Positions 1-6,535 of a DNA stretch of 64,000 nt are shown in pieces. The position numbers and the translations under genes were made by a program. This stretch comes from Patescibacteria group bacterium (GTDB lineage Bacteria > Patescibacteriota > Patescibacteriia > Patescibacteriales > UBA12465), in the NCBI GenBank assembly GCA_034002925.1, contig JAVEZP010000001.1, forward strand, positions 711 through 64,710, in the 5' to 3' direction. Numbering within the stretch: position 1 is the stretch's first letter; each line of letters begins with the position of its first letter. The notes under the pieces are model-generated. The model searched no databases and was not told the origin of the DNA. It saw nothing but the letters and a program-made list of their open reading frames with translations.

Positions 1-384
1 AAATCTGGATTGATCAAAATTTCCAGAGTAAATAAAACCGCCTTCTACTTTTTTTATCTTAATTTCTCCTTTGCCCTTGGTGTTGTATTTTGAATTGTCC
101 CAATCGTATTTATAAGAGCTAAAATATTCCATTTCCCAACCCCCGACTATATTTGGATATTCTTGGAAACCAATTAAGATAAATAATTTTTTTATTATCC
201 AATGTTTGTTCCAAAAAAATTTTTCATATAAAAAATTTAAAAGATAAAGAATTAAAAAGATAATTGCGGAAACAATACTGTATTTCCAAAAGTTTAATTC
301 AGGAAATTTGTTGCTTACCGCATAAAACGCAAAAGTCAGTAAAACCGATATCGAAACTATTTTTTTGAGATTTAATTTAGTCAT
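1..384 (-). CDS. Partial 2-TM membrane protein (C-terminus off window); candidate CBASS effector (Cap15 / S-2TM-beta-like)
   Basis: Not in the ORF track. Reverse-strand translation from ATG 384-382 stays open to position 1: MTKLNLKKIVSISVLLTFAFYAVSNKFPELNFWKYSIVSAIIFLILYLLNFLYEKFFWNKHW...PNIVGGWEMEYFSSYKYDWDNSKYNTKGKGEIKIKKVEGGFIYSGNFDQSRF. Two N-terminal hydrophobic helices are followed by a beta-strand-rich segment. ATGA start/stop overlap with the nucleotidyltransferase gene. Confidence 0.5.
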   Translation of the reverse strand, partial: MTKLNLKKIVSISVLLTFAFYAVSNKFPELNFWKYSIVSAIIFLILYLLNFLYEKFFWNKHWIIKKLFILIGFQEYPNIVGGWEMEYFSSYKYDWDNSKYNTKGKGEIKIKKVEGGFIYSGNFDQSRF

Positions 385-1313
385 ATTTTTTCTAAAACAA
401 GATTTGCGCATTTTGCTATAAATAACTGAGCGTCTGCTAAATTCCAACAATTTTTAGACAAAAATAAAAGGTCTTGACCGTTGGCACATTTATAATATTC
501 AAGTGATTTGTTTTCGGAATCATTGAGAACATTTTGCAATATATTTATAACAATACTCTGGTAACTTCCGTTAAAAGTTGGTGCCGGGCAGTTGTATATT
601 AGGTTTTCTATAAAATATGATGGTGCGATTTTTTCGTCTATTTCTCCTTTTTCTTTTAATTTTTTTCTAATATTTTTAAAAATTCTGATAGAGTCTTTGA
701 ATTTCCCTTCCGTGTCATGATTAAGGGCTTCACAATTTTTCTTGTGTTCTTTCGGGTAGTTAATTATTAGATCATTTGTTTCGGTATTAAAAAATTTTAT
801 TCCAGAAACATATTGATCTGTAGTGTAAAAAGTAAAGCGACCATATTTTCTGTGATGAAAGGATGGAACAACATCTGCGTTTACTCGTAAGGTATTTTTT
901 GGAATTTTCAAACTCTTTTTGCCATATTCAACAGTTACTCCCGAAAAATATTTTTTTAATGATTCATGGACATCTTTCTTAAATTGAACAAATTTATATG
1001 TGCTTGAATTTGGAAAATAAGAATGAAAATCTTTCTTTTCATCTTCCGTTAATTGATCTATGTCATAAGAAAAGATTGATTTTAGTTCAATCACAACATC
1101 TACATCACTATCGTCAGTGATGTTTGTGCTATTGGCGTATGAACCCTGCAAGTAAACCTCATAATTTTCTGCTTTAATCTCATAATCATGATTATTTTTA
1201 GCAAACTCCGATAAGTAAGCTGATAATGCTTTTCTTATCTCTTCATGGGTGTGTTTGTATTTTGTCGCCGCTGGAGCAGAAGCCCATTGTTGTAACTGTT
1301 GTTCAGAAATCAT
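381..1313 (-). CDS. CD-NTase / SMODS-type nucleotidyltransferase (CdnE-like cyclic oligonucleotide synthase)
   Basis: Pol-beta NTase catalytic pattern: QGSYANSTNI...DSDVDVVIEL (GS...DxD) plus a downstream third Asp in NADVVPSF. N-terminus LQQWASAPAATKYKHTHEEIRKAL resembles CdnE-type leaders. Size is 310 aa. A 2-TM gene follows with a 4-nt overlap. Confidence 0.7.
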   Translation of the reverse strand: MISEQQLQQWASAPAATKYKHTHEEIRKALSAYLSEFAKNNHDYEIKAENYEVYLQGSYANSTNITDDSDVDVVIELKSIFSYDIDQLTEDEKKDFHSYFPNSSTYKFVQFKKDVHESLKKYFSGVTVEYGKKSLKIPKNTLRVNADVVPSFHHRKYGRFTFYTTDQYVSGIKFFNTETNDLIINYPKEHKKNCEALNHDTEGKFKDSIRIFKNIRKKLKEKGEIDEKIAPSYFIENLIYNCPAPTFNGSYQSIVINILQNVLNDSENKSLEYYKCANGQDLLFLSKNCWNLADAQLFIAKCANLVLEKI

Positions 1314-1314
1314 A

Positions 1315-2406
1315 TTATTTTTTTACAATAAATAACGCATCTGAAACAGATGTGTATTTTTCGTCTTTCCAGTTAAAATTAATTTTTAGATTATTATCGG
1401 CTTTAAATTTATCAAGATATGACCCGACACTTTCTCTTAAAAAATCAATATTTCGTTTGAGCTTCCAACTATCTTCAAGGTTATCTTTTTCTATTAACAC
1501 TAAAAATAAACGATTAGCAGAATCAAAACGTCTTTCGCCTTGTTCTTCATAAAGCCATTTAATGAGTTCTTTTTTGTTTTTCATAGCTTCTTCAACTATT
1601 TTCCACCTTGTTTTATGAAAATTGGTTATAGCTTTTTTTACTGGCTCAAGGTGGCTCTCTGATAATCTGGTAAGTAACTCGGATAGTAAAAATTTATTTT
1701 TTTGTGTTGAGTCAAATTTAATTTTGTTTGTCTTGGCAATTTGCTTGAGTTCAGTAAGTTCTGGCTTTAACCCTTTTTCTTTACGCTTCAAAGCCATGAA
1801 ACCGTCAGGAAAATAAGTCACTTTTAAGTCAAAAGGAATTTGGTCAACAAAAAAATCAACCTTTTTAATCAAACCGATCGTGGGTAACACTCTTTTGTGC
1901 TCTTTAAAAATGTCTTCAATCAAAATTGATGTCCAGTGATTAAACCAAGAACACAAAACATATCCTTTCAGACTTTCATGTATATCGTTGTCAATTTTAT
2001 CCATTAAGACATCAAAATTTTTGATTTTTTTGATGTAATTATCGACAATTGTTCTCTCAAGGTTGTTTTGATAGAGTCCGCCCCAGTCAAAAATTTTCAA
2101 TTTATATAATTCTGAAATGAGTTTATCTTCATAACCCTTTCTTTCCTTCCTTTCATTTTGAAATTTGTCATTGATAAATTTATCAATAACTTTTTCTGTT
2201 TTAGGACTATTAACGATTTGTTCGATTAAATCATTGGTTTTTTGATTGGGGTCGATATCAATTTTTTCCGCAAATTCAACAAGCAAAGCCTTTCGTGTGA
2301 TTGAACGAATTTTTAAAAATAGCAAACTATTTTGGTCTTTGAGCAATGTTTCAAAATCGTTTACATCATAAAGTTTTTTGAGCTGTTGATAAATTTTATA
2401 ATTCAT
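1315..2406 (-). CDS. Putative type II restriction endonuclease (partner of the adjacent methyltransferase)
   Basis: Starts 6 nt downstream of the DPPY methyltransferase stop. Possible PD-(D/E)xK-like motif in VDFFVDQIPFDLKVTY. I recognise no other family. Confidence 0.4.
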   Translation of the reverse strand: MNYKIYQQLKKLYDVNDFETLLKDQNSLLFLKIRSITRKALLVEFAEKIDIDPNQKTNDLIEQIVNSPKTEKVIDKFINDKFQNERKERKGYEDKLISELYKLKIFDWGGLYQNNLERTIVDNYIKKIKNFDVLMDKIDNDIHESLKGYVLCSWFNHWTSILIEDIFKEHKRVLPTIGLIKKVDFFVDQIPFDLKVTYFPDGFMALKRKEKGLKPELTELKQIAKTNKIKFDSTQKNKFLLSELLTRLSESHLEPVKKAITNFHKTRWKIVEEAMKNKKELIKWLYEEQGERRFDSANRLFLVLIEKDNLEDSWKLKRNIDFLRESVGSYLDKFKADNNLKINFNWKDEKYTSVSDALFIVKK

Positions 2407-2412
2407 AGTGTT

Positions 2413-3471
2413 TTAGTTATAACAATAAAATAAATATTCGATAGTTCCTTTGCGACTTCCTTTTCCGCCATAATGATTTGAGTATTCATTCTCATACACT
2501 TTTACTTTTTTGTGCTTTTTAATGAGTTCAACCATTTTTTCTTTTTCTGGATAACTCTTGCTGTTATAAGAAATTAACCAATAAGGAATGTGTTTACTAT
2601 TTTCAAAAAGTTTTTCAAAAGATTTCTCAATTTCAGTTTTTTGAACAAAGCCACTCTCTTTTTTTGGAAAATACGACTTTGTGCCATTTACAAATTCTTT
2701 GTCTTTCCAGTACTGAACGAATGTTTCTAAGAAATGATAAAAGGCTTGATAGTCTGGGTGGCAACCAACATAAGGTGGATCAAAATAAACTAAATCAACA
2801 TCTTTGAGTTTTGGAAGCAAAGAAATTGTGTTTTCGCAAAATACCTTATTCTTTTTTTTGTTATCAAAAATTGCATGATTATATGAATGTACAAGGCTTT
2901 GGAATATATCTTTCAGGTGTTTTGCTAGGCTTGCATTTCTTTTAATTCTATCTGGATTTTTGCTATATTCAATTGCTTTGAGATGTGCAAAATGCCCTAA
3001 TGTAATTTTTCTTGTTAGAGATCGGTTCATTAAAGTCAAAGCTAATGCTTTTTTGTATTCATTGTCTAATTTCTCAACATTTGCTCGGAATTTATCTAAA
3101 AATTGAGCTTGGTCTTTTTCAAAAAAAACTCCAGTAAAAATCCTTTCGATTAGATTATCAGCTTTTGTAGTTTCATCTAACAAAATATCTATATCATTTT
3201 TATCAAGAATGATATTTTGATTTTCAATTAAAGCTTTAGAAATTAGAGAATTACACTTTAAAAAGTCGTTACTATAAACCTTATAGCCTCTGTCTTTAAA
3301 ATAATATCCAACAACGGATGTCCCGCTAAAAGCGTCAAAAACAGTTTCAATATCTTTTGGTGCAATTTCAAGAATCCACTTAATAAGTTTCTCTTTGCTT
3401 CCCAAATATTGGGTTCTTGGAAATTGGTGTATTTTATATTTTTCGCCGAATAGCGTAGTTTGTGACATCAT
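2413..3471 (-). CDS. N6-adenine DNA methyltransferase (D12/Dam-like, DPPY motif)
   Basis: SAM-binding motif DAFSGTSVVGYYF and catalytic motif LVYFDPPYVG. Confidence 0.8.
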   Translation of the reverse strand: MMSQTTLFGEKYKIHQFPRTQYLGSKEKLIKWILEIAPKDIETVFDAFSGTSVVGYYFKDRGYKVYSNDFLKCNSLISKALIENQNIILDKNDIDILLDETTKADNLIERIFTGVFFEKDQAQFLDKFRANVEKLDNEYKKALALTLMNRSLTRKITLGHFAHLKAIEYSKNPDRIKRNASLAKHLKDIFQSLVHSYNHAIFDNKKKNKVFCENTISLLPKLKDVDLVYFDPPYVGCHPDYQAFYHFLETFVQYWKDKEFVNGTKSYFPKKESGFVQKTEIEKSFEKLFENSKHIPYWLISYNSKSYPEKEKMVELIKKHKKVKVYENEYSNHYGGKGSRKGTIEYLFYCYN

Positions 3472-3497
3472 AATTTATATTCTGGTATAGTAGTTGT

Positions 3498-3503
3498 ATT
3501 ATA
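3498..3503 (-). promoter_or_regulatory. Candidate -10 box (TATAAT) for the MTase-REase-NTase-2TM operon
   Basis: Plus-strand attata is TATAAT on the minus strand, 27 nt upstream of ATG 3471. Confidence 0.3.
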
Positions 3504-3640
3504 TTTTTTCCCCTTATAAATAAATCGTTTTCGGAGCGATAGCGGAGAAAACACCTTATTCCCCTCTATAATTAAAGAAAAAGAAATTTGAAAATTTTTT
3601 AAAACAGTTGGGCGTTAACCCAGAAAAGAAAAGGAATATT

Positions 3641-3775
3641 TCAGCTAACGTTTCGGCATATACGATGTTGCGAGCGAGCGTGGCGGTATAATTTTCTTAC
3701 CGCCTAAGCGAGCGAAGCAATATGGGCGGAACGACGAGGCACGAGGAGTGTAACCGTATATGCCGTGTTAGCTGA
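3641..3775. repeat. E1: GC-rich imperfect-palindrome element (attC-like / structured-RNA-like)
   Basis: Outer stem TCAGCTAAC (3641-3649) / GTTAGCTGA (3767-3775). Inner stem CGGCATATACG (3654-3664) / CGTATATGCCG (3755-3765). Internal hairpin GGCGGTA (3682-3688) / TACCGCC (3698-3704), flanked by GAGCGAGCG and AGCGAGCGA. Homologous to E2. Confidence 0.75.
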
Positions 3776-3784
3776 TGTAATTTT

Positions 3785-4534
3785 TTATTTTTCTTCCTCT
3801 TTTTTCTTCGACCTTGAAAATAATCCAAAAATCAAAGCAATAAGTCCTCCTGTAATAGCTCCAATTATACCTTTTTCTGCAACGCCTTCAAAAATACTTG
3901 GAGAGTCATTCTTTTTTGCTTCTTCTTCGTTATATTCATATCCTTGTTCATAACTAAAAGAATCAATGATTTGATTGAAAGTTGATAAATTTTCTGAATA
4001 TTCAGATTTAACGGAATAAAAATTGAGTTGAGTTATTCCACTTTTGCCTAAAAACATAGCTAATAGACCCTTTACTTTTCCGACATTGGCAACATCCATT
4101 TCTAGGTTCATAAAAATAATATTTCTTTCTTTATCTACGAATGGGTCTTGAAGACTTGCATTAGTCATTAGTTCTGAATATTCATCAATTTTTTTGTTTA
4201 CGCTTTCAGAAAATTTATCACTTTCAAATGTCTGGGTAATTTGACTATATGAAGGAGTATTTACTTTATGTTGTTGAACAAGGATATATGGATATTGAAA
4301 AGCTTCGGTGTTCTCAAGCTGAAAGCCTGCCGCATAATCAATAAATTGTCCGCCAGTCATATCTGCTGCTTGTTGCATTACTTCGTCGATTGTAGATTTT
4401 GGAATTTCAACCCACCCGCTTGGAATTGTGAATGAGTAGTGATATTGCTGGCTTACGTAATCAAGGCTTTCAGCGTTTGCCATTGTCGGTAGCAGAAAGA
4501 AGCAAAAAAGAATGACGGTTAAGATTTTTTTCAT
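3785..4534 (-). CDS. Exported protein of unknown function with a C-terminal TM anchor
   Basis: Signal peptide MKKILTVILFCFFLLPTMANA. C-terminal helix GIIGAITGGLIALIFGLF followed by the charged tail SRSKKKEEEK. Confidence 0.6.
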   Translation of the reverse strand: MKKILTVILFCFFLLPTMANAESLDYVSQQYHYSFTIPSGWVEIPKSTIDEVMQQAADMTGGQFIDYAAGFQLENTEAFQYPYILVQQHKVNTPSYSQITQTFESDKFSESVNKKIDEYSELMTNASLQDPFVDKERNIIFMNLEMDVANVGKVKGLLAMFLGKSGITQLNFYSVKSEYSENLSTFNQIIDSFSYEQGYEYNEEEAKKNDSPSIFEGVAEKGIIGAITGGLIALIFGLFSRSKKKEEEK

Positions 4535-4564
4535 AGTATTTATGGTTAAAAATAAAAAATTATT

Positions 4565-4665
4565 TCGGCTAACATTTCAGTATATCTGATGTTTGCCGTA
4601 GCGGAGCGGAGGCAAATATAGGTCGAGCGAGGGCACGAGCGAGCCAGATATACTGTGTTGTGCGA
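4565..4665. repeat. E2: second copy of the GC-rich imperfect-palindrome element
   Basis: TCGGCTAAC (4565-4573), CAGTATATCTG (4578-4588) / CAGATATACTG (4645-4655), GTTGTGCGA (4657-4665). Hairpin TTTGCC (4592-4597) / GGCAAA (4611-4616). GAGCGA-gggcac-GAGCGA at 4625-4642. Same architecture as E1 with compensatory stem changes. Confidence 0.75.
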
Positions 4666-4707
4666 GGGTGAGCGACGTTAGGAGCGAAAGTGCAACGCCC
4701 CCTTGAG

Positions 4708-4752
4708 TTCTCTTTTGTGAAAAAAAATCCAATTCAATTTTGGCACTTTTTA
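4708..4752. repeat. Left arm of the inverted repeat bracketing the Ltp-like gene
   Basis: TTCTCTTTTGTGAAAAAA-(10 nt)-AATTTTGGCACTTTTTA. Matches the reverse complement of 5550-5597. Confidence 0.7.
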
Positions 4753-4767
4753 TCCTTATTTATGCAC

Positions 4768-5529
4768 TTAATCATTAAGGTGTTGAATGGCATAATCCGC
4801 TTCAGATTTCGTAAATTTTTCGCCATATGCCGAAGTCAGTTGGTCGTGAATAGCTGATGGAGACATATTCATAGTATCTTGATAAGTTTTTGCTTTAACT
4901 AAAGCATTCGCATTCCAATCAGCTGTCATATTATCTATTGCATATTGTGCGGCATCAGCTGAAAACTTTTCGCCATATTCTGAAACAAGCTGATCATAAA
5001 CGCCTTGCTTCGACATGTGCATTGTTTTTGCATACATTGTTGCTTTGTTAAGAGCAGATTTATATTCAGCCGGAACAGACGCTTCCTTGGTAGGTTCAGG
5101 TTTTTCCTGGGGAGTAGGAATTATTTCTGTTTTTTCCGTTTCAACTGGTTTTTCGTTGTTAGTGGTTTTAGGCTGTTCTTCTGTTGGTTTTATTTCATCC
5201 TTCTTTTGTTCAATGTTTGATACAGATTGTTCTTGCTGAACTGGTGGCTGATTATTTTGTTGTTTTGAAGTATCAATAGTCGAGCCAAAAATTATAAAAC
5301 CAATAATTATAACAACCGCTTTCATTCCTCCAGAAAGATGAAATTTCCATTTTTCATCAACCAATTTATTAACAGGAGGAAGAAGAACAGCGGCCATTAT
5401 TAACATTACGATTCCTGGAACTGGCTCAGAAAAAACAGATATAATTCCAGTTAAAGCAAAAAGAATGCCAAAAATCCAGCTCAAGATTAGACCAACTGTG
5501 ATTTTTTTACTTGTTGTTTGTTCTGTCAT
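4768..5529 (-). CDS. Membrane-anchored protein with two Ltp-type repeats (superinfection-exclusion-like surface protein)
   Basis: N-terminal TM helices and a Pro/Glu/Lys/Thr-rich linker. Two repeats follow: YKSALNKATMYAKTMHMSKQGVYDQLVSEYGEKFSADAAQYAIDNM and ALVKAKTYQDTMNMSPSAIHDQLTSAYGEKFTKSEADYAIQHL. Both match the Ltp (host cell surface-exposed lipoprotein) repeat pattern. Confidence 0.7.
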   Translation of the reverse strand: MTEQTTSKKITVGLILSWIFGILFALTGIISVFSEPVPGIVMLIMAAVLLPPVNKLVDEKWKFHLSGGMKAVVIIIGFIIFGSTIDTSKQQNNQPPVQQEQSVSNIEQKKDEIKPTEEQPKTTNNEKPVETEKTEIIPTPQEKPEPTKEASVPAEYKSALNKATMYAKTMHMSKQGVYDQLVSEYGEKFSADAAQYAIDNMTADWNANALVKAKTYQDTMNMSPSAIHDQLTSAYGEKFTKSEADYAIQHLND

Positions 5530-5549
5530 AGTTTTTTAAATTAAAGAAT

Positions 5550-5597
5550 TAAAAAGTGCTAAAATTTTCCTTGTTTTTATTTTTTCACAAAAGAGAA
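5550..5597. repeat. Right arm of the inverted repeat bracketing the Ltp-like gene (its native 5' leader)
   Basis: The reverse complement reads TTCTCTTTTGTGAAAAAA-(13 nt)-AATTTTAGCACTTTTTA. Confidence 0.7.
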
Positions 5598-5699
5598 TTT
5601 CGTACAACTCTTTATTATACAATCAAAGCATCTTATAACTACCATTATTTGTATGTTATACAAATATATGCTAATATATTAATCCACTTATTTACTTTA

Positions 5700-5728
5700 A
5701 TTATAACACTAGGATTAAGGGTATGCAA
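5700..5728 (-). promoter_or_regulatory. Outward sigma70-type promoter pointing into the cassette array; its -35 overlaps the recombinase start codon
   Basis: Minus strand reads TTGCAT (rc of 5723-5728, i.e. ATGCAA of the recombinase), a 17-nt spacer ending in TGT, then TATAAT (rc of 5700-5705). This is an extended -10, TGTTATAAT. Confidence 0.5.
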
Positions 5729-6535
5729 TCAATTTTAGATAACACTAAAAACACATTAAAATTAAAAAACTATAGCTCAAGAACTATCAAGTCCTATTTG
5801 TTTTACATCAAAGAATATCTAGTTTTTGCCCAAAAAAATGCTTTACATGATAAAAATATTGCAGTAGAAAAATATCTTTTACAGAAACAATCTAAAAATA
5901 ATTCCTCACAAACAATTAATTTAGCCTTAAATGCTATTAAATTTCTATACAGAGATGTTCTTAGAGTTAAAGATAACATTAGTTTTAAATGCGCCAAAAG
6001 AAGCAATAAAATCCCAATTGTTCTCTCTAGGTTAGAAATTGAGGAAATTATCTCTGTTATTAGCAACACAAAACACAAGCTAGCTATCACTTTAAGCTAT
6101 GCTGCTGGCCTACGAGTAAGCGAAACAGTGAGCTTGAAGGTAAAAGATCTGGATTTAGATAGTTTAACTATCCATCTAAAAGAAGCTAAGGGAAGAAAAG
6201 ATAGAATCACCATATTTCCAGATAAACTTAAATCGAGCATAAAAAATTTAATAGCCGGAAAAACTAGTAATGATTTAGTCTTTGAAAACAATAGAGGCGC
6301 TAAACTAAGCACTACTTCCCTACAAAAAGTGTTTCGTTCTGCTCTAAAGAAAACAAATATAAAAAAAGAAGCTACTTTCCATTCACTTAGGCATAGCTTC
6401 GCTACTCATTTGCTTGAAAATGGAGTTGACGTGAGATATATTCAAGAATTATTAGGACATGCTAACATACGTACCACACAAATATACACTAAAGTTACCA
6501 ATCCGCAACTAAAAAATATCAAAAGTCCATTATAA
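5723..6535 (+). CDS. Tyrosine site-specific recombinase (Xer/integrase family, short form)
   Basis: N-terminal SAM-like domain (YSSRTIKSYLFYIKEYLVF, LNAIKFLYRDVL). Catalytic region AAGLRVSETVSLKVKDLDL, KGRKDRITIFP, HSLRHSFATHLLENGVDVRYIQELLGHANIRTTQIYTKV (R..HxxR..Y). Confidence 0.85.
   Translation: MQSILDNTKNTLKLKNYSSRTIKSYLFYIKEYLVFAQKNALHDKNIAVEKYLLQKQSKNNSSQTINLALNAIKFLYRDVLRVKDNISFKCAKRSNKIPIVLSRLEIEEIISVISNTKHKLAITLSYAAGLRVSETVSLKVKDLDLDSLTIHLKEAKGRKDRITIFPDKLKSSIKNLIAGKTSNDLVFENNRGAKLSTTSLQKVFRSALKKTNIKKEATFHSLRHSFATHLLENGVDVRYIQELLGHANIRTTQIYTKVTNPQLKNIKSPL

Follow-up and report, generated by a model that had tools for sequence, protein, structure and literature searches.

What are the two GC-rich structured elements, designated E1 and E2, that lie between single genes next to a tyrosine recombinase gene in a Patescibacteria group bacterium? 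The window analyzed here is a stretch of 64,000 nt from contig JAVEZP010000001.1 (GCA_034002925.1), and all coordinates refer to it unless a locus number (L) is given. A preliminary description of this DNA presented the elements as a new family, did not recognize them as an attC class, and implied that they act as RNA. Our analysis led to a different answer: E1 and E2 are very probably attC-type recombination sites of an integron-like gene-cassette platform. Their termini, TAAC...GTTA, match the core of the attC R''/R' boxes (RYYYAAC/GTTRRRY), they belong to an array of single genes beside an IntI/XerA-like recombinase, and the sites of the family are chimeric; on these three grounds the earlier exclusion of attC sites was given up. 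The array genes are single, look promoterless, and alternate with the elements. The neighboring recombinase, which had already been flagged, is the key to this reading.

E1 and E2 share a fully compensated architecture

The sequence features originally ascribed to E1 and E2 were all found at their positions. The left arm of E1 consists of TCAGCTAAC (3641-3649), GTTT, and CGGCATATACG (3654-3664), and the right arm of CGTATATGCCG (3755-3765), a single T, and GTTAGCTGA (3767-3775). The corresponding segments of E2 are TCGGCTAAC (4565-4573), ATTT, and CAGTATATCTG (4578-4588) on the left and CAGATATACTG (4645-4655), T, and GTTGTGCGA (4657-4665) on the right. Between the inner stems of the two elements, each arm has four changed positions, yet every one of the 11 pairs is Watson-Crick in E1 as well as in E2; the stems are fully compensated as had been stated. 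E1 and E2 also have in common ATGTT after the stem, AATAT(G/A)GG, and GAGG(G)CACGAG. The GC content reaches 0.54-0.59 in the elements compared with about 0.25-0.35 in their surroundings, and each element lies 3' of a single minus-strand gene (the open reading frames (ORFs) of cassettes 1 and 2 in Table 1).

Both strands were folded as RNA and as DNA, a check that had been proposed with the preliminary description, and on the + strand E1 and E2 came out far beyond shuffled sequences. For E1, the + strand gave -64 kcal/mol as RNA (z = -6.65) and -31.5 kcal/mol as DNA (z = -4.4), with -47.6 and -23.8 kcal/mol, respectively, for the - strand. E2 folded as DNA with -20.1 kcal/mol on the + strand and -15.3 kcal/mol on the - strand. 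The minus strand had the weaker fold in every comparison for either element, RNA and DNA alike.

The elements belong to a widespread family

A home-made scanner for AAC/GTT stems proved too permissive in AT-rich DNA, and covariance models were used instead. Model R1 was built from seven elements and comprised only the R and L stems; model R2 was built from the hits of R1. Together they returned 52 elements (E ≤ 1e-3) in 15 loci, so that the proposed covariance search yielded dozens more copies with strong covariation. E1 scored 99.8 and 89.2 bits and E2 94.5 and 80.3 bits with the two models. Elements ranged in length from 71 to 213 nt, with freely variable interiors. The loci included metagenome-assembled genomes (MAGs) labeled Uhrbacteria (10 hits), Falkowbacteria, and Gracilibacteria, with others labeled Patescibacteria or bacterium only.

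Place and orientation of the arrays beside the recombinase were fixed in many lineages. In the arrays upstream of the recombinase gene, all hits were on the + strand; none lay downstream and none on the other strand. Co-oriented arrays adjoining the recombinase were found in the window and in L004, L049, L053, and L058. The recombinase of L004 is 89% identical to that of the window, and eight single minus-strand genes with elements in their spacers lie upstream of it. Arrays reach ten single-gene units (L024, 10 hits). When four loci were picked solely for their long contigs, all four carried arrays (2, 4, 5, and 7 hits). The search with R1 and R2 found no copy in the remaining 58 kb of the window.

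Selfish palindromic repeats (of the repetitive extragenic palindromic/bacterial interspersed mosaic type or similar to miniature inverted-repeat transposable elements) or intrinsic terminators between genes would likewise be intergenic, GC-rich, palindromic, and 3' of genes. However, copies were absent from the rest of the 64-kb window and from the downstream flanks of >20 loci, structure was kept while sequence was not, no transposase was associated, and no T-tract follows the main hairpin on the gene strand. A terminator scan returned 2 sites compared with 1.0 expected, no excess over shuffled sequences, and neither of them was a full element on the gene strand. We regard repeats or terminators as extremely unlikely.

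Arrays were also seen in a MAG labeled Bacteroidales (L032 9377-13581) and in one labeled Firmicutes UBA2203 (L038 10435-13541), in both cases downstream of and co-directional with a related recombinase. The recombinase of L032 has 479 aa with an N-terminal extension, and that of L038 is apparently fragmented. One L038 cassette holds two small adjacent ORFs (73 and 77 aa) that look toxin-antitoxin-like by eye.

Pairing is conserved on one strand

The claim that the elements form a genuine structured family, in which pairing is kept while sequence is not, was borne out by the alignment of the 52 elements. The L stem was 96% paired, and 11 of 11 pairs had changed on both sides. The covariation score was 0.531 compared with 0.175 for shuffled alignments (0 of 500 reached 0.531) and ≤0.105 with the partners slid; the alignment was fitted to the model, which favors structure, and the raw sequences gave the same picture. 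The R box spans 9 bp with the pattern TC-NNN-TAAC/GTTA-NNN-GA. Of its core, the two A-T pairs were kept in 51 and 52 of the 52 elements; for the T-A and C-G pairs next to them, the counts were 41 and 43, respectively. It is followed by an internal loop with 3-4 nt on the 5' arm, (G/A)TT(T/C), opposite a single T, and by the L stem of 11 bp, which is mostly bulge-free and varies in sequence with its pairing retained. The interior runs in the order L'', A(A/T)GTT, stem 1, loop, stem 1', AA(T)(A/T)T, GGGTGA, hairpin 2, G(A/T)AAC or GAGC, and L', and its three-way junction is conserved. Among the pairs that form the base of hairpin 1, the second shows covariation (T-A 12 and A-T 23; n = 37), and a G·T wobble occupies the third in 34 of 37 elements.

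A pronounced strand asymmetry was evident. G·T exceeded A·C in the L stems (10 versus 4) and in the cassette-matched R boxes (28 versus 10), and the motif GCGNAGC, present in 17 of the 32 elements of the first alignment, was counted 22 times on the + strand and was absent from the - strand. Because of the G·T excess, the G·T pair of hairpin 1, and the one-strand occurrence of GCGNAGC, these sequences indicate that folding would take place on the + strand, the bottom strand with respect to the cassette genes. Hairpins of d(GCGAAGC) and related sequences with GNA triloops are unusually stable DNA mini-hairpins and not a favored RNA motif. Because GCGNAGC resembles this type, the folding substrate is probably single-stranded DNA (ssDNA) rather than RNA.

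The hexamer GAGCGA occurs exactly at 3534, 3672, 3710, 4625, 4637, 4670, and 4682, as described before. These seven are among nine plus-strand copies in the 64-kb window, where both strands together hold 22 copies with 13.7 expected. Five of the seven lie inside E1 and E2 and can form tandem G·A pairs, as first proposed. As a family-defining module, GAGCGA-loop-GAGCGA did not hold up: the 32 elements of the first alignment contain GAGCGA 8 times, in each case on the strand that folds. The family-wide motif is instead formed by GCGNAGC/(G/T)AGCG repeats on one strand only, of which GAGCGA is a local form.

Sites are chimeric and cassettes are replaced at an attI-like site

In integrons, the outer part of the R' box belongs to the following cassette, and the two ends of a cassette match each other. 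We therefore asked whether the right-end 9-mer of a site pairs better with the left 9-mer of that same site or with the one belonging to the next site on the recombinase side, be it attC or attI (n = 46). Perfect pairing was obtained in 28 of 46 cases with the next site and in 4 of 46 with the own partner. Of the two pairings, the cross-site one was superior in 31 cases and inferior in 8, with 7 ties (Wilcoxon p = 2.6e-6). The right end of E2, GTTGTGCGA, forms 8 Watson-Crick pairs and 1 G·T with the attI-side box TCGTACAAC compared with 6 Watson-Crick pairs and 1 G·T with its own left end, TCGGCTAAC. The odd right end of E2 is thus explained by a chimeric site whose outer box pairs with the attI-side box.

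Exchange of cassettes at the attI-like site was visible in natural sequences. The exact recombinase protein of the window is also encoded on other metagenome contigs, including L001 and L002. Its gene adjoins an Ltp gene in the window, whereas the neighbor in L001 and L002 codes for a Peptidase_S51 protein; leftward from the recombinase gene, the sequences show no difference until AAC 5606-5608, the inferred crossover of the attI-like site, beyond which the genes are not the same. The junctions read tttcgtac|AAC in the window and tttcagat|AAC in L001, and the left ends of E1 (tttcagct|AAC) and E2 (tttcggct|AAC) have the same shape. A second lineage repeats this pattern: one and the same recombinase is encoded in L053, L055, L057, and L056, and the sequence to the left of the AAC in the first three is not that of L056. 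The attI AAC also forms the very first bases of four independent contigs (L006, L011, L012, and L054), as would be expected of an assembler that meets a population with several alternative sequences at one junction. The attI-side core ATTTC-NNNN-TAAC|TC(G/T)TT(A/T)TTATAC was kept in 12 loci. The rule for a circular cassette with crossover at the G^TT core fits both the pairing counts (28/46 versus 4/46) and the two lineages in which cassettes are replaced precisely at the attI AAC.

Numerous contigs from metagenomes and MAGs (also L017-L019, L027, and L029) stop 70-140 bp short of the recombinase gene, on its upstream side. Loss of the cassette arrays during assembly is probably systematic in MAGs of these organisms. 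The attI region 5609-5722 contains two direct TTATAAC motifs and the near-palindrome TTTGTATGTTATACAAA, conserved across loci; the TTATAAC motifs resemble the TAAC-containing GCGTAAC and CCATAAC just inside attI1 of pZS50. These motifs could be accessory recombinase-binding sites or a promoter/operator of the recombinase gene.

The junctions also bear on the possibility that the elements are a new family of structured noncoding RNA, expressed from the + strand and antisense to the neighboring genes. Strong covariation, G·U-compatible wobbles on the + strand only, the conserved three-way junction, and the RNA fold of E1 would all suit such an RNA. It would have to be new: as already suspected, no known RNA family was involved, Rfam matching only three tRNAs in the window at gathering score, and with a permissive threshold the element region gave chance-level hits only (E 1.9 and 6.4). 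A noncoding RNA leaves unexplained, however, that the outer box matches the next element and not its own partner, that the gene content switches exactly at the AAC beside an identical recombinase, and that the elements are confined to one array next to that gene. The wide range of lengths, the variable interiors, the GNA triloop of GCGNAGC, which is generally known as a DNA-type mini-hairpin, and promoter signals at chance level argue against it as well. The RNA reading implied earlier thus accounts for none of the cassette-junction evidence, and we consider it highly unlikely.

The recombinase lacks the IntI-specific insertion

The product of 5723-6535 is the sole tyrosine recombinase encoded in the window. 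Its top NCBIfam match was TIGR02249 (integron integrase), with 217.6 bits in two stretches (cut-off 265, not reached), followed by NF040815 (XerA/integron integrase) with 212.3 bits (cut-off 220). The closest solved structure was VchIntIA (2a3v, E 1.7e-43), and here, too, the alignment fell into two pieces: residues 8-203 of the query aligned with 9-209 of the chain and residues 194-270 with 241-317. About 30 residues of 2a3v, most of chain positions about 210-240, have no counterpart in the recombinase. Archaeal XerA (5hxy) aligned in a single stretch (E 9.6e-41). In tblastn against plasmids, IntI1, IntI2, and other annotated integron integrases made up nearly all sampled hits, with ~30% identity over 99% of the query, and the top hit was a gene annotated xerA. 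The IntI-specific additional domain around patch III is not present according to the structure and TIGR02249 alignments, and the recombinase has 270 aa compared with ~337 codons of the annotated intI1 coding sequence in L047 (1,014 bp). Because of the NCBIfam, structure, and plasmid matches, the predicted enzyme is classed as IntI/XerA-like but without the IntI-specific insertion.

The attC reading can be put into the form of a mechanism. The + strand of each site, the bottom strand for the cassette genes, would fold as ssDNA into a 9-bp R box, an asymmetric (G/A)TT(T/C)-versus-T loop, an 11-bp L stem, and a three-way junction with a G·T-wobble first hairpin. The adjoining 270-aa recombinase would bind the folded hairpins. 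Cassettes would be excised by attC × attC exchange and inserted at attI just upstream of the recombinase gene, with crossover at the conserved AAC (G^TT on the top strand). As a result of excision and attI insertion, single co-oriented genes reading away from the recombinase would accumulate. Catalysis by this recombinase, the exact bond cleaved, and the mode of cassette expression are what we infer from the arrangement of the sequences.

Several observations weigh against this reading. The recombinase is without the insertion that was reported as necessary for IntI activity (Messier & Roy 2001, cited in PMC9668308). It is 60-70% identical across many lineages of the Candidate Phyla Radiation (CPR) and embedded among housekeeping and core genes, and CPR recombinases have been classed as Xer-related (Cand) (Smyshlyaev et al. 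2021, PMC8138268). Because of its conservation, its core-gene setting, and the Cand class, it may be a housekeeping Xer that adjoins the array by coincidence or was borrowed by it. The link between recombinase and array is one of association, drawn from sequences. L013, L015, and L026, with 1.6-10 kb of upstream sequence, gave no hit. A promoter scan near attI revealed no signal above chance, which gives no basis for claiming a Pc-like promoter. On the folded strand, the extra bases of the loop are found in the 5' arm, whereas aadA2, the sole canonical attC read here, has its bulged base on the 3' arm. Finally, R1 (filters off, E ≤ 10) and R2 missed the dfrA12, orfF, and aadA2 attC sites of the class 1 array in L047, a comparison made in one direction.

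These points lead to the most serious rival, in which the recombinase is the CPR chromosome-dimer resolvase, the attI-like site its dif, and the cassettes are elements that exploit Xer, similar to integrative mobile elements exploiting Xer or pdif modules, rather than an integron. The absent insertion, the XerA match almost as good as the IntI match, the strong conservation of the gene among core genes, and the Cand grouping fit a resolvase, as does a change in GC skew sign at the array of L004. XerCD can, moreover, use folded ssDNA, as in the case of the CTX phage (PMC3442271), where a Xer enzyme joins an ssDNA hairpin to a duplex site through the exchange of single strands. The sites found here, however, are folded palindromes of 71-213 nt with covarying stems, not duplex dif sites of 28-30 bp. 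Because the skew has the same sign on both sides of the array in L014, L016, and L028, the locus does not generally appear to be at the terminus. The array of up to ten single-gene units with chimeric sites (as in L024) is an integron pattern. A pure Xer/dif system is therefore quite unlikely in our estimation. It overlaps with the integron-like platform, in that one enzyme could do both jobs.

Genes and other features of the window

The features are collected in Table 1. The genes left of 5530 are all on the minus strand, and the recombinase is oriented away from them. Cassette boundaries were inferred from the AAC cores. The start codon of the cassette 2 ORF is 30 nt from E2. No closing site for the distal unit was found inside the window, where the covariance model detected no element left of 3635. 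The GC-rich tail of cassette 1 showed no significant structure by nearest-neighbor folding and has no counterpart in the covariance model.

TABLE 1. Features of the array region in the window
Feature	Position	Strand	Remarks
Further ORF of distal unit	starts near 385, leaves window at left end	-	
DS2_2-like anti-phage nucleotidyltransferase	381-1313	-	E 3.3e-82, 276 bits (cut-off 350, not reached); weak match to cyclase of the cyclic-oligonucleotide-based anti-phage signaling system (CBASS)
Unknown ORF, 363 aa	1315-2406	-	Distal unit
D12 adenine methyltransferase	2413-3471	-	Distal unit
Cassette 3 or distal array region	1-3648	-	Multi-gene, defense-like operon
Hairpin TTTTC-GGAGCGATAGCGGA-GAAAA	3528-3551	+	Within ~50-nt leader ahead of methyltransferase gene
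E1	3641-3775	+	attC-like site closing cassette 2; architecture as E2, hairpin 1 longer
Cassette 2 ORF	3785-4534	-	249 aa, weak DUF2167-like match; cassette about 3649-4572
E2	4565-4665	+	attC-like site closing cassette 1; R box 9 nt per side, ATTT/T loop, 11-bp L stem, hairpins 1 and 2
GC-rich tail of cassette 1	4666-4707	+	Contains GAGCGA-CGTTAG-GAGCGA
Cassette 1 ORF	4768-5529	-	Membrane-anchored, two Ltp lipoprotein domains, PF07553 E 1.8e-47; cassette about 4573-5607
attI-like site	5597-5722	+	Cassette-side box ATTTCGTACAAC 5597-5608, then conserved TCTTTATTATAC, TTATAAC repeats, near-palindrome TTTGTATGTTATACAAA, up to recombinase start codon
Tyrosine recombinase, 270 aa, IntI/XerA-like	5723-6535	+	PF00589, PF13495 (Pfam); faces away from cassette array

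The hairpin at 3528-3551 had been taken for a third remnant of the elements. It is present, and its stem and loop type match hairpin 1 of the element at L014:8428; taken alone it is weak (z about -1.9), and R and L boxes are absent. This match makes it probable that the hairpin is what is left of the hairpin-1 module of an attC-like site; it could represent either a decayed site or a reused regulatory module. The ~50-nt leader with the GGAGCGATAGCGGA hairpin (3520-3560) is near-identical to L004 5680-5730, where it precedes an APH kinase gene.

Genes for APH-family phosphotransferases were seen in related arrays at L004 4585-5679 and 8295-9164 and at L058 7093-7968, and one gene weakly matched PF10706, a family of aminoglycoside resistance. 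Resistance-like genes could therefore have a reservoir in these arrays. When array proteins were compared between loci by blastp, the sole cross-locus match was a weak one (L024 versus L031, 31% identity, E about 4e-10). This near-absence of common proteins suggests to us that cassettes are highly diverse; it is no positive evidence of transfer. Within the arrays of L014, L028, and L031, GC skew was near zero or opposite to that of the flanks (L014: about 0 versus +0.3), which is consistent with foreign or oppositely oriented cassette DNA.

Implications

Integrons are known mainly from Proteobacteria and are defined by an integrase with a special insertion reported as necessary for its activity. 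Our findings suggest that cassette arrays with natural exchange occur next to a recombinase without this insertion. If this is true, current integron detection, which needs the IntI-specific domain, would not call these loci complete integrons. The arrays would provide a concrete route of gene gain for episymbiotic CPR bacteria with reduced genomes; they carry defense genes, surface proteins, and kinase or resistance-like genes (APH). The sites would also offer a second solution to hairpin recognition for comparison with the IntI-attC complex, and they bear on the origin of integron integrases from Xer-like enzymes.

Full-text searches of the open-access literature, several of them directed at integrons or attC of Patescibacteria/CPR, brought up no account of such a system. 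An integron-like platform that combines a short recombinase, devoid of the insertion, with attC sites of distinct geometry is apparently undescribed. A further-reaching proposal, to which we give slightly less than even confidence, is that these loci represent a distinct and ancient integron lineage in CPR and some other bacteria (L032, L038). Its integrase would be of the short, Xer-like Cand/XerA type and perhaps also serve as the Xer of the cell. It would capture cassettes at hairpin sites without the IntI-specific domain, using a different code for recognition and strand choice (4/1 loop, G·T wobble, and three-way junction), and the lineage would stand near the evolutionary root of integrons.

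Comparison with known systems

The arrangement resembles that of canonical integrons (class 1 and the sedentary integrons of Vibrio) in many respects. There, too, cassettes mostly hold a single gene, have one common orientation, and adjoin a recombinase that points away from them, every cassette ends in an imperfect palindrome with RYYYAAC/GTTRRRY-type cores in which structure prevails over sequence, crossover takes place at AAC/GTT with chimeric sites, and the bottom strand folds. Cassette content is likewise highly variable, and assemblies break at the array. The canonical aadA2 attC of plasmid pZS50 (L047) has GCGTAGC on its bottom strand, a GNA-type loop as in the CPR elements. The bottom strand of the dfrA12 attC of the same plasmid (L047 4228-4320) holds CCGGAGCGCAGCGGAGGG, which is very like the E2 loop CCGTAGCGGAGCGGAGGC. 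Repeat loops of the (G/T)AGCG kind may thus be more widespread among attC sites.

The differences concern both partners. IntI carries a specific insertion of ~30 residues, whereas the 270-aa CPR recombinase does not. In the aadA2 attC, the R box has 7 bp, the spacers 6/5 nt, and the L box a bulged G on the 3' arm; the CPR sites have an R box of 9 bp, a 4/1-nt loop, and a continuous L stem of 11 bp. A conserved G·T wobble, the GGGTGA junction motif, and CPR/Patescibacteria as hosts set the CPR elements further apart from canonical sites, and the CPR models gave no hits on the canonical integron DNA of L046.

Archaeal integrons, like the arrays described here, were found in MAGs of poorly studied lineages. 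Their IntIs are reported to carry the IntI-specific additional domain, described as defining, and their attCs to fold like bacterial ones (Ghaly et al. 2022, PMC9668308); 6 IntIs compare with 539 attC sites, most arrays having no detected integrase (PMC9668308). The CPR system differs from them by the absent domain and by its geometry. Single recombinases of the Xer family (archaeal XerA and Cand) have the same size and domain layout as the enzyme found here and, like it, no IntI insertion. Xer sites are short duplex dif sequences at the terminus, whereas the CPR loci have arrays of long hairpin sites that, in several genomes, lie off the skew switch.

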